The translations under genes and the position numbers were made by a program. A model generated the notes under the pieces. The model made no database searches and was not told where the DNA came from. It was given only the letters and a program-made list of their open reading frames with translations. From assembly GCF_030013595.1 (NCBI RefSeq), contig NZ_CP122768.1: a stretch of DNA of 64,000 bases, one strand, 5' to 3'. Origin of the DNA: Escherichia coli. Lineage in GTDB: Bacteria > Pseudomonadota > Gammaproteobacteria > Enterobacterales > Enterobacteriaceae. Shown here one piece after another: positions 55,182 to 60,567 of the stretch (position 1 is its first letter; each line of letters begins with the position of its first letter).

Positions 55182-55213
55182 AAAAAAGCCGGGAGATTTA
55201 ATGTCTACCCGGC
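55182..55213. terminator. bidirectional terminator between SymE-like and Rhs immunity genes
   Basis: A6 + GCCGGG...CCCGGC hairpin; reads as hairpin + T6 on the minus strand. Confidence 0.5.
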
Positions 55214-55243: not shown

Positions 55244-55684
55244 CTATTTATTTAAGTATTTTTTAGAGATTCTTAACCACCATGCTTTACCAGAATTAAA
55301 ATTTGAAATTAATACTTTCCCTTTTTTCCTTTTTAAAACATCAAGAATTACAGCATCAGATTTTTTTAATATCCCATCTTCTTGAGGAACACCTAACTCT
55401 ATCAATATATTAATTGAGTCAAATAGATGACCTATCTTTTCATATTCTTCATACAATAAATTACTTTCATTATTCGATATCTGAATTAAGTAATTAAATG
55501 TAACCCCCAAAATATTAGGAAATTTAGAGCTATTGACACTCGATATAAACTCCTGAACAATAGCTCTGTTTTTTAATTTCCCGGCACATAATAAAGCATA
55601 AATATTTCCAGCCAAACGTTCGATATCATGCGGATATCTATATCCTTTAGCAATTATTGCCTTAATTTTCTGTTCAGGAGTCAT
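55244..55684 (-). CDS. putative Rhs immunity protein (146 aa, low GC)
   Basis: AT-rich ORF starting 3 bp after the Rhs stop on the same strand; typical toxin-immunity arrangement. Confidence 0.7.
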   Translation of the reverse strand: MTPEQKIKAIIAKGYRYPHDIERLAGNIYALLCAGKLKNRAIVQEFISSVNSSKFPNILGVTFNYLIQISNNESNLLYEEYEKIGHLFDSINILIELGVPQEDGILKKSDAVILDVLKRKKGKVLISNFNSGKAWWLRISKKYLNK

Positions 55685-55686
55685 TA

Positions 55687-58600
55687 TCAGTACCTCCCGT
55701 TAGGAACAGAAAATCCAGGCAAACGCCTTAGATTTTCCCACGATTCAGGGAAGTGAGTTAAGATCACTGGTGTTTTCCCTATCTGACTTGTTGCAGTAAA
55801 CAAACCTGTTTCAGGATCATAATAGCCTACTCTAGGTTTATTCGTATACCTATCTCTATAAGTAAATTTCCTGCCATTTTGTATCGTGGTTCTTGCACTA
55901 ATATCATATTCTTTTACTGAATTTGCACCGACTTGTGAGCCATGTTTTTCAAAGTGATCTCTTAGGCCCGGCCCATCAACATTTTGTCGTGCTTTATTCC
56001 ATTTTGCATTTTTAGCCGTACCACAAAATAACCCAAGCGGATCGATCCAGCTTAACGGATTTGGCACATAAGCATAGAGGTTCAGCCCACCGTTTAATCC
56101 TATCGGGTCCGTTACCATGAACCGCCCGACATCCGGATCATAGTACCTGTGCAGATTGTAATGCAGCCCCGTTTCCCTGTCGAGGTACTGTCCCTGGTAG
56201 CGCAGGTTCTGCTCCACCCCGCCGTGGTCCTTCTCCTGTATCGTGTTACCCCAGACCTGATACCCCGTCTCCCACACGATTTTCCCGTCGCTGTCCGTCA
56301 TCTCTTCCGGCGCGCCGTTCACATCCGTGTGAAAATACAGTATCCGGTTCGGGCCCTCTTTGCCCGCCTTATCCACCCGCGCCAGCGGTTCATAACTCCC
56401 CGGGTCCCTGTAGATGTACAGGCTGTCTGTTCCCTCCGGCCTGCTCTCCTGCGCCAGCCGCATTCCGTCCCATAAAAATTTTGTCCGGTTGTACGGTTTA
56501 CCGTCAGGACTGATGTGCTGTTTTTCCGTCCGCCTCCCCAGCGCATCGTACACATACCGGTACGTCCCCCGCGCTGTCGTCACTTCCACCATCCGGTGTT
56601 CCGCATCATAACGGTAACTCTGCGTGCCGCTCCGCCCCTCCTTTTCCACCGCACGGCCAAATTCGTCGTAACGGTAGTGCACACCACGGTAAGACATCAG
56701 CCGGTTGAACGGCACCACGCTGTTTTCTGCCGTGGCCCTTTCCCCCGCGCGCCGCGCCAGCAGGTTTCCCGCCGCGTCGTACTGCCAGCTCGCCAGATAC
56801 CCCTCATCCTCCGAGCGGCACGCCGTGATGCGCCCCGTGGGGTCGTAGAAGTAATCCGTTTCCCCCCGCCGGCTGTGCCGCGTCTTCAGCAGTTCATCCT
56901 CGCCACTGTAGCTGTACTGCCGGTCCGTGAACGTCTCCGGTACCCCCCCGCGCATCCCGCTGTATGTCTCCCTGCGCTTCAGCCGCCCGCCGGGGTCGTA
57001 AAGCTGCCGCGTGCTCAGTCGCCCCTGGCTTCTGAGCACTTCACGGTGCAGGGCGTCACGTGTGAACTCGCTGATGACCTCCCGGTCCAGATTTATCTGC
57101 TGGAGATGGCCGCTGCCGTAGTACAGATGACGCTGCGTTCTGCCGTCCGGAAAGGTGGTGGCTGTCCGGTTGCTGAGTTCATCGTACTGATGGGTCAGGA
57201 CGCCCTGCGCCGTCTCCTCAGTCAGCATCCGCCCCAGTCTGTCGTAACTGAAGCGGATAATCTCCGGTGCGTCTGTTTCCCCGGCATCCGACCGTCGGCG
57301 GCGGATTTCCAGTAGCTGGTCTGCCGCATCATGGACGTATTCCGTACGGCTATCGGCTGTCTCCTTTGCCGTAAGCCGGCCCGCCGCATCACGTGCCAGC
57401 CGATGGCGGATTTCACCGCCCCGGTCCCCGGTGAACACCACTTCCGTGACCGCGTTCAGCGCGTTGTAGCGGTACGTCTGGCGGCAGCCGTCCGGATTTA
57501 TCTGCTCCGCCAGACGGTCCAGCACATCATGGCGGAACCGGTAGCTTTCTCCGTTCTCGTTTGTCAGCGTGACCAGACGCCCGTAAGCATCGTACCCGAA
57601 TGCCGTCCTGCGCCCCGTCGCGTCCGTCCGGCTGCGCACCCGGCCCTGCCCGTCCCGCTGCCAGCGCGTTATCCTCCCCATCGGGCTGGTGTACTTCACC
57701 AGCCTGCCCGCCGCGTCCGACTGGTAATTCACCGTGCGGCCGTCCGCCAGTATCACCTCCGTCAGGTGGCCGCTGTCGTCATACCCGTAGCGCGTGCTGT
57801 GGCTCTGCGCGTCTGTCATCCGTATCAGCCGCGTGCGTTCGTCGTAGAACCAGGCCGTCTGCGAGCCGGAACAGTCCGTGTGCCGCATGAGCTGCCCGTC
57901 TTCGTTCCACTGAAGGTATTTATTCCCCCCGCGCGCATCGGTTATCTGCACCACCTGGCCGTGGCGGTCATACTGATACCGGGTGTTCTGCTGCAGCGGG
58001 TCGGTCACCGCAAGAAGATTGCCGCGTTCATCGTACTCACAGCACCAGCTGTTCCCCGCCGCGTCCACCTCCGTTTCCGGCTGGTGCCACACCGGGTGCC
58101 ACTGTGTCTGTGCCACCCGCCCCAGCGGGTCGTGCGTCTCCGTGATATGCCCCTGCCGGTCATACACATAGCGCCATTTGCCGCCCTGCGCATCGGTCAT
58201 TCCCAGTAACAGCCGTTCTTCGTCGCTCCAGCGGAACGTCGTCACCTGCCCGGCTTCGTCCTGGTACGCCGTCACCTGGTTCTGCGCGTCCCACTGATGA
58301 TAACGCGTGCGCCCCAGCCCGTCCGTCACGCACAGCCTGCGTGACGCCAGGCTCCACGCCAGCCGGTACTGTTCACCGCTGTCCGTGTGGTGCCCCGTCA
58401 CCCGCCACGCTGCGTCATCCGGGCCTTCATACCAGCCCCACTGGTAATAATACCCTTCGCCGCCCGGCTGGCGGTGCAGGGTCATGCAGTGGTTTTCGTC
58501 GTAAGCAAACTCGCGCAGCAGGTGTCCCGTGCTGTCGTACACGCCGTTCAGGTCGCCGGCCTCGTCATAGCGGTAACGACGCAGCAGTAAAGGAGCCGTC

Positions 58601-60339
58601 TCAGGGAAATGCTGATAAATCTGTGTCACCCGCCGGGGATGCGCCGCCAGTTCATAATGCAGACGGATGCACGGACGCTGCTGTTCACCGCTGATTTGCG
58701 TGATGCGCCCCAGCTCGTCGTAGTACAGATTCAGACAGTTGCTGTTGCGGTCGCCCAGCATTTTCAGCCGCTGGCGCTGCGGGTGATGCGGGTCGGCCTC
58801 AAACAGAAAAAACTGCCCGTCATCGCTGCTGATAAGCCAGTGCCCCTGCTCACCCCGCCTTACCGCCAGTCCTTCGCCGGGGCTGTAAAACCCGCTCCCC
58901 GGCAGCACGGCCTCCATATCCAGGCGTCGTCCCATGCCCGACACAAAGGTCATACAGTTTTCGTCAGCAGTACCCGGCGTGCGCTCGAGGCTGACTTCAT
59001 ACATCACGCTCCAGCCCTGCCCGAACATCCCTTCCGTGCGGTCGTCACGACTGCTGTACACGCGCTGCCAGTCCAGCGGAAAGTGGCCCGGCAGACTGAA
59101 ATCGAAGTCATCGTCATCCGCCAGATATTTGGCTCCGGTGGCGGCATTGACCGGATGCGGAAGGGCACTGATGGCCTTCTGCGTCATCACCCCCATCCCG
59201 ACACTGGCAGCAAAACAGGCGATTTTAGAAAGCATTTTGCCCGGGCGAAGAAACATCAGCGCCACAGTTGCCACCAGGGTTATCTGCGACCTGCCGCTTC
59301 TGATATCCCTGACCACCAGTAACGGACCGCCAATGCGGACATCCGGTGACACAAACGCCCCGTTCCCCGGCTCATTCACCACCCAGGCCTCGCAGGTGCA
59401 GCGTGCCCCGCTGCGTGCCGCCGGCTGGCTGTTGATACGCACATCCCGCGCGCCTTCCGCGATATATTCCGCTGCGGGCGGTTCATCATCGCCTTTGAAC
59501 AGATTACTGATGCTGCCAATAACCGCATTCACTCCCTGAAAGGCGGTTTCCAGCATACCGCCCGGACTCAGCAGGTTAAGGGCCGTTCCCAGAGGGTCAT
59601 CCAGAAAGGCGGCTTTTTTTTGTGCGAGAAACTGCGTCAGTGAGGAGGGATGTTTATGGCAGTCGATTTTATCGTCAGGGGTCGGGGTGGAGCCCGGGGC
59701 CGCACTGGCCACGGTGGGCTGCCATAGTTCCGACACAAAATGTGTCACGCCATCCACCATTTCAGAACGCCCTTCTTCCGTACTGAGCTGGTCATGCAGC
59801 GCCCGGGACATCAGCACAGGCCCTGTCACCGGGTTAACCGCCAGGGCTATGGCCCCCGCCATTTCCAGATATTCCCCGGCCACATCCCGGAACGTTCTGG
59901 CGTCCTCCTGACGCTGCGCTTCTTCCTGTTCCGCCTTCGCCTGTGCCTCCTGCGCCTCAATGTCCTGCCGCGATGCCGCAGTCGCCGCTGCCCGCGCGGC
60001 AGGTTTGCTGTTGATCCATGTGTCGCCAGAGCCGGTGAGGATGTAACCTTCAATCTGAGGCGGGAAAAGCCAGTTCGCCAGTTGCTCACTTTCCCTACTG
60101 ATTCGGTCATTCCAGCCCTGATACGACATAAATACCGCTGTTGCTATACCGATCGCTAAAATGGTTGAGCAGCCCAGCGTTGCCACTTCAACTCCGCCCA
60201 GCGCCGCCATGGTTCCGACAACCAGAACATCCACCAGGGCTGTGGCGGCAACCTCTACAACTGCCCCCAGCACATCTGCCATAAACGACGTATGCAGCAG
60301 GGCATCACCCTGCCTTGCCGCCCAGAATGCCTCTTCCAT
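55687..60339 (-). CDS. Rhs-family polymorphic toxin: prePAAR motif, TM segments, split PAAR, RHS/YD-repeat shell, C-terminal toxin domain
   Basis: 1550 aa; [10 protein letters not shown] prePAAR motif at residues 7-16; PAAR signatures; [9 protein letters not shown] T6SS-effector N-domain motif; many YD repeats; core ends [27 protein letters not shown] followed by a 113-aa AT-rich tip; positionally equivalent to K-12 rhsC. Confidence 0.9.
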   Translation of the reverse strand: [1550 protein letters not shown]

Positions 60340-60357: not shown

Positions 60358-60567
60358 TTAATTCGTCCCGGCTTCCTGCCGCATCCTGAAGCGCAGATTC
60401 TTTTTAATTTCAGCCCAGCGCGTCATATCTGCCGGGGTCAGCGGTGTGGTTCTGGCGTAGGTGAAGGCCATCATGACCCGTTCACCCGGCAATACAAATG
60501 CCACCTGACACTGGTACACCTGCTCGTTACCCCGGAGAAACTGGCTCTGTATTTGCAAACCGCCTCA
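60358..60567 (-). pseudogene. truncated Eag/DUF1795-like T6SS effector chaperone remnant (C-terminal about 68 codons only)
   Basis: reading frame open only from an in-frame TGA at 60565-60567; no ATG (track uses TTG); C-terminal pattern resembles EagT6-type chaperones; ends 18 bp before the Rhs start. Confidence 0.4.

Follow-up and report, generated by a model that had tools for sequence, protein, structure and literature searches.

A predicted BECR-fold RNase tip and its putative immunity gene at the end of an Escherichia coli Rhs effector gene

The Rhs gene carries a prePAAR N terminus and an AT-rich tip

The window, the 64,000-nucleotide stretch of E. coli contig NZ_CP122768.1 that we analysed, includes in its list of open reading frames a gene for a 1550-aa Rhs effector on the minus strand (55687..60339, stop codon at 55687-55689). 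From the N terminus, the order of its parts is a prePAAR-like motif, hydrophobic segments, a split PAAR motif, DUF6531, a YD-repeat shell and the RHS-associated core. Effectors of the prePAAR class are characterized by an N-terminal AARxxDxxxH motif, transmembrane segments and a PAAR domain, and all three are found here: residues 7-16 of the translation read AARQGDALLH, long hydrophobic stretches follow, and Pfam matches PAAR_motif at residues 291-321 (1.4e-4) as well as DUF6531 (6.3e-19). The NCBIfam models matched are RHS_core, YD_repeat_2x and Rhs_assc_core, with values of 3e-64 for the YD repeats (TIGR01643), 1.7e-28 for the RHS-associated core domain (TIGR03696) and 4.8e-97 for NF041261, and the Rhs annotation is also backed by the RefSeq features of a genome that is 99.9% identical.

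TIGR03696 spans residues 1360-1437 and terminates exactly at ...NPLSWIDPLGL. Since the core domain ends at residue 1437, we took residues 1438-1550 as the toxin tip, a domain of 113 aa (55690..56028, minus strand). The protein thus has the layout of an Rhs polymorphic toxin, in which a YD-repeat shell and an RHS-associated core ending in PxxxxDPxGL precede a variable tip. The end of the core, DPIGL-x17-DPLGL (residues 1411-1437; 56029..56109, minus strand), is placed by the end of the TIGR03696 match and by the sequence. A preprint that quotes the literature on Rhs toxins (bioRxiv 10.64898/2026.05.10.723254) describes this element as their conserved autoproteolysis (self-cleavage) motif, after which the variable tip starts, and by analogy the Rhs protein of the window would cut itself after DPLGL.

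The tip differs from the core in composition, with a GC content of 39.5% against 61.6%, and the gene that follows is lower still at 28.3%; the corresponding GC3 values are 26%, 73% and 22%. That gene (55244..55684, minus strand) encodes 146 aa. The junction between the two genes reads ...GGGAGGTAC TGA TA ATG, leaving 2 nt between stop and start, so that the ATG begins 3 bp past the last base of the stop codon. A GGGAGG ribosome-binding site for the second gene can be read within the last codons of the first (55693..55698, minus strand), 8 nt upstream of the ATG, and this internal site together with the 2-nt gap suggests that the two genes are translationally coupled. Both the AT-rich 113-residue tip after the core-ending motif and the low-GC 146-aa gene 3 bp downstream of it had been noted in an earlier, sequence-only reading of this DNA, and both hold at the level of ORFs, domain boundary and composition. 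Beyond the 146-aa gene lies a terminator-like hairpin (55182..55213, minus strand), recognized by eye as GCCGGG, a 14-nt loop, CCCGGC and then TTTTTT, which a consensus terminator scan missed because the scan takes loops of 3-8 nt only.

The tip is predicted to adopt a BECR fold

Neither the tip nor the 146-aa protein gave anything significant in Pfam-A, NCBIfam, PADLOC, PHROGs or PDB sequences, by single-sequence or profile search, which bears out, for the libraries searched, the earlier description of both as belonging to no recognized family. No Pfam toxin model matched the tip at E ≤ 10 or any of 59 diverse relatives at E ≤ 0.1, and sequence profiles of the family reached no PDB chain at E ≤ 10, colicin D chains included. 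Weak matches to Ntox47 (E 0.14), BetaGal_gal-bd (0.17) and fragments of protein G and EMILIN were judged to be chance. Ntox47 (the Salmonella Rhs2 toxin; PF15540) is, like the tip, a predicted BECR domain at the end of an Rhs protein, and was the only Pfam model to give any signal. That signal amounted to 12.8 bits, required the Rhs DPxGL segment in the query and was gone for the tip alone and for the 59 relatives; moreover, the tip does not fit the residues that are conserved in Ntox47 (D, [HRK], RT, E, D, PH ...).

We therefore turn to structure. An AF2 model of the tip, built from 13 sequences, had a pLDDT of 86 and a pTM of 0.81 and showed an α+β domain in which two N-terminal helices are followed by a four-stranded meander. 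In a numbering where L1437 is position 1 (so that H30 is H1466), the elements are helices 23-34 and 39-52 and strands 54-59, 66-72, 77-82 and 89-95. This predicted arrangement agrees with the definition of the BECR fold as an N-terminal helical segment and then a four-stranded meander sheet (Zhang et al. 2012, PMC3482391), and the serine or threonine that such domains conserve on the fourth strand, as a contributor to the active site, would correspond in the model to position 92 (T1528). Structurally, the tip comes closest to the CdiA-CT of E. coli O32:H37 (PDB 8EY4 chain A, whose deposited name is 'PT-VENN domain-containing protein') and to the tRNase domain of colicin D (PDB 1TFK, 1V74, 5ZNM; Tox-ColD, Pfam Colicin_D), and RelE, HigB and YoeB are also among the neighbours. 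Beyond the tip's own family, Foldseek against AFDB50 returned the C-termini of Rhs, filamentous-haemagglutinin and LXG proteins, along with Ntox10 and Ntox50 proteins. A literature search yielded no paper on 8EY4 or the O32:H37 CdiA, and none citing the RefSeq protein accessions of the toxin-immunity pair.

The predicted fold of the tip thus resembles those of colicin D and other toxins that cut RNA, and its homology to colicin D or 8EY4 would be visible at the level of structure only: identity to the colicin D domain is just 12-16%, and Colicin_D in Pfam matches neither the tip nor its 59 relatives. BECR RNases cleave RNA independently of metal and leave 2',3'-cyclic phosphate ends.

Conserved histidines fit a two-histidine BECR pattern

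Among the 59 relatives, H30 is invariant (59/59), and R67 (56/59), T49 (55/59), H93, S45 and Y58 (54/59 each) and H26 (49/59) are strongly conserved. Position 92 is occupied by T in 43, S in 9 and N in 7 of the 59 sequences, and position 33 by D, E or Q in 42 (D15, E15, Q12). The conserved polar residues of the tip are in Rhs numbering the invariant H1466, then H1462, R1503 and the pair T1528-H1529, and the family can be summarized by the pattern W..., H-[FY]-x-x-H-G, Y-D-x-S-A-R-x-T-I, R-V-G-Y, I-x-T-H-F. We propose H1462, H1466 (codon 55942-55944), S1481, R1483, T1485, Y1494, R1503, T1528 and H1529 as candidate catalytic or substrate-binding residues.

Two known groups offer a comparison. 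The Tox-ColD signature is [KH]K, Hxx[ED], [ST] and [TS]xxK (Zhang et al. 2012, PMC3482391). The tip matches half of the [KH]K element, having H26 followed by F or Y rather than K (the colicin D pair K607, K608 corresponds to H-F), while H30-x-x-[D/E/Q] and the strand-4 serine or threonine fit. In contrast to colicin D, however, the tip family has an additional, near-invariant histidine beside the strand-4 threonine, and its carrier here is an Rhs protein rather than a colicin. In the second group, the two-histidine BECR clades Ntox19, Ntox35 and Ntox50 (for example B. subtilis YxiD and MafB2), one histidine sits on the N-terminal helix and the other on the last core strand (Zhang 2012, PMC3482391); of these, YxiD has been proven to be a tRNase and has a protein as its immunity partner (PMC12700104). 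Like the tip, these domains are C-terminal RNase tips of polymorphic toxins, and an Ntox50 protein is among the tip's Foldseek neighbours, but the Ntox19, Ntox35 and Ntox50 Pfam models do not match the tip at E ≤ 10 and the HxVP motif is absent from it. Judged by residue conservation, the family appears to fit the two-histidine BECR pattern combined with the 'Hxx[ED] ... [ST]' part of the Tox-ColD signature.

The sequence-only reading had instead suggested a HEPN-like RNase, with the R-x5-H of GLRDHFEKHG as its catalytic motif. The string is indeed present (residues 1458-1467, with R1460 and H1466 as its arginine and histidine), and its histidine is the one that is invariant in the relatives. 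As evidence of family, however, it carries no weight, since R-x4-6-H turned up in 56% of 20,000 shuffles of the tip. HEPN domains are all-α with a four-helix up-and-down core and conserve R-x4-6-H, whereas the tip is predicted to be α+β with a four-stranded sheet and retains R1460 in only 30/59 relatives, the others having A, E, Q, D, T or L. HEPN models in Pfam gave 0 matches to the query or the 59 relatives, and no structural match was seen. What the tip shares with HEPN RNases is thus the string and a probable metal-independent RNase activity; the fold class is another, and we regard the HEPN assignment as scarcely credible.

The 146-aa gene travels with the toxin domain

The toxin family comprises 206 clusters at 50% identity. 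Its domain forms the very C-terminal end of proteins that reach 5106 aa and are of the Rhs, Hint-domain, eCIS-locus or WXG100-adjacent type, and some relatives carry a signal peptide or a fusion to a barnase-like domain. As a whole, the carriers of the family are Rhs/T6SS proteins, Hint-domain giants, eCIS-locus proteins, WXG100-linked (T7SS-type) proteins, Sec-signal proteins and two-gene cassettes.

The 146-aa protein was modelled by AF2 as all-α with eight helices (pLDDT 92.9), and the model had no specific PDB neighbour. It belongs to a family of 63 members, 0 of which have a Pfam domain, and itself has no match in Pfam, ImmD and Imm64 included; it is unrelated to the colicin D immunity protein. 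Of 15 fetched loci with the immunity gene, 13, the window among them, have it directly downstream of a complete toxin domain; of the other two, one is preceded by a remnant of the toxin and the other stands as an orphan. This adjacency was seen in E. coli, Pectobacterium, Pseudomonas, eCIS and WXG100-linked loci and spans four carrier types, the eCIS copy of the immunity protein being matched through hhalign (98.8% probability, E 1.3e-16). The small standalone toxin relatives that we examined do not use the immunity family of the window's pair. Tip and immunity gene co-occur in 6 of 5426 complete E. coli genomes. A small downstream gene that co-varies with the tip is what an Rhs toxin/immunity pair calls for, and from this conserved adjacency across Rhs, eCIS and WXG100-linked carriers we infer that the 146-aa protein is the cognate antidote of the tip, as had been suggested from its position.

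Proposed activity of the pair

Taken as a whole, our explanation is that the tip is a BECR-type RNase toxin borne on an Rhs protein and that the next gene encodes its immunity protein, to which we assign a probability of roughly 70%. RNase activity is the most likely function of the tip, and the Rhs protein is most likely a type VI secretion effector that acts as a metal-independent RNase and is paired with an immunity protein. By analogy with the Rhs family, the shell would enclose the 113-aa tip, released by the cut after DPLGL. The prePAAR/PAAR N terminus would mount the protein on the VgrG spike, and the transmembrane segments may aid entry into the target cell. In the target cytoplasm the tip would cleave RNA, most probably tRNA, and so stop translation. 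Fold, conservation pattern and analogy suggest that H1466 on helix 1 and H1529 on strand 4, beside T1528, could act as general base and acid, with H1462, R1483, R1503 and Y1494 binding phosphate. In the producing cell, the all-α protein encoded 2 nt downstream would be made by coupled translation, and would bind and block the tip.

The choice of tRNA as substrate draws on the closest structure of known function, the colicin D anticodon tRNase, and on the fact that most characterized BECR polymorphic toxins are tRNases (PMC9086364, PMC12700104). This argument is weak because the fold does not reveal the substrate, and an RNase that attacks something other than tRNA, be it rRNA or mRNA in a ribosome-dependent manner like RelE or RNA in general like the secreted RNase barnase, would be in keeping with RelE, HigB and YoeB as structural neighbours and with the signal peptides and barnase-like fusion of some relatives, which suggest extracellular, unspecific RNase roles. 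We consider this somewhat unlikely. Less probable by a clear step is that the tip has a BECR/RelE-like fold and is no nuclease at all, poisoning its target by binding, as ParE does with gyrase, or by sequestering or modifying a translation factor.

An RNase of the BECR type, with an immunity protein of its own, is an ordinary type of bacterial weapon, and the sequence families of both toxin and immunity protein are unnamed. A specialist would expect a BECR RNase tip and a private immunity protein at the end of an Rhs gene, and the understanding of such systems is unchanged. Polymorphic toxins, Rhs proteins among them, are a main source both of new RNA-targeting enzymes and of competition between strains of gut bacteria. 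What the pair contributes is a toxin domain of 206 clusters and an immunity family of 63 members, both unnamed and at present labelled 'hypothetical' by profile libraries. Naming and characterizing them would allow better annotation of toxin loci of the Rhs, eCIS-associated and WXG100-linked kinds across several phyla, and would supply another BECR RNase for comparison of substrate specificity with colicin D. Our more tentative suggestion is that the tip is the first E. coli representative of a BECR clade not yet described, whose partner is an eight-helix immunity family likewise undescribed, in which case the RNA target or cofactor need of the tip might differ from those of every characterized BECR toxin.

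Delivery genes at this locus and in other strains

An Eag/DcrB-related chaperone gene normally precedes prePAAR Rhs effectors. Upstream of the Rhs gene in the window we found a remnant of such a gene, encoding 66 aa of the C-terminal part (60358..60558, minus strand). It appears in the ORF list and is identified by annotation in the 99.9% identical genome, where its counterpart is labelled 'DcrB-related protein, incomplete, missing N-terminus'; an NCBIfam search with the fragment gave no match. No vgrG lies between the remnant and ybfA, so that the window has no adjacent pair of Eag (DUF1795/DcrB-related) and VgrG genes. With the chaperone gene reduced to a remnant and no vgrG adjacent, the copy in the window may need genes elsewhere or go undelivered.

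One reading of this arrangement is that the copy in the window is an undeliverable relic, its toxin and immunity genes intact and its chaperone and spike genes lost, in which case only the immunity function would matter to the cell. The missing vgrG and the shortened chaperone gene speak for it, as does the same truncation at this locus in another strain with a different tip. The 1550-aa Rhs ORF is fully intact, however, from prePAAR and PAAR through the shell to the tip, and we hold the relic unlikely. Other E. coli strains carry other tips at the same locus, and in strain PapRG-06-5 an intact 150-aa chaperone gene and vgrG precede the same Rhs, tip and immunity module. There the Rhs type occupies a second E. 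coli locus, and a vgrG and chaperone gene so preserved could act in trans. The genomes that match the query region do so at a median of 3 (up to 7) places.

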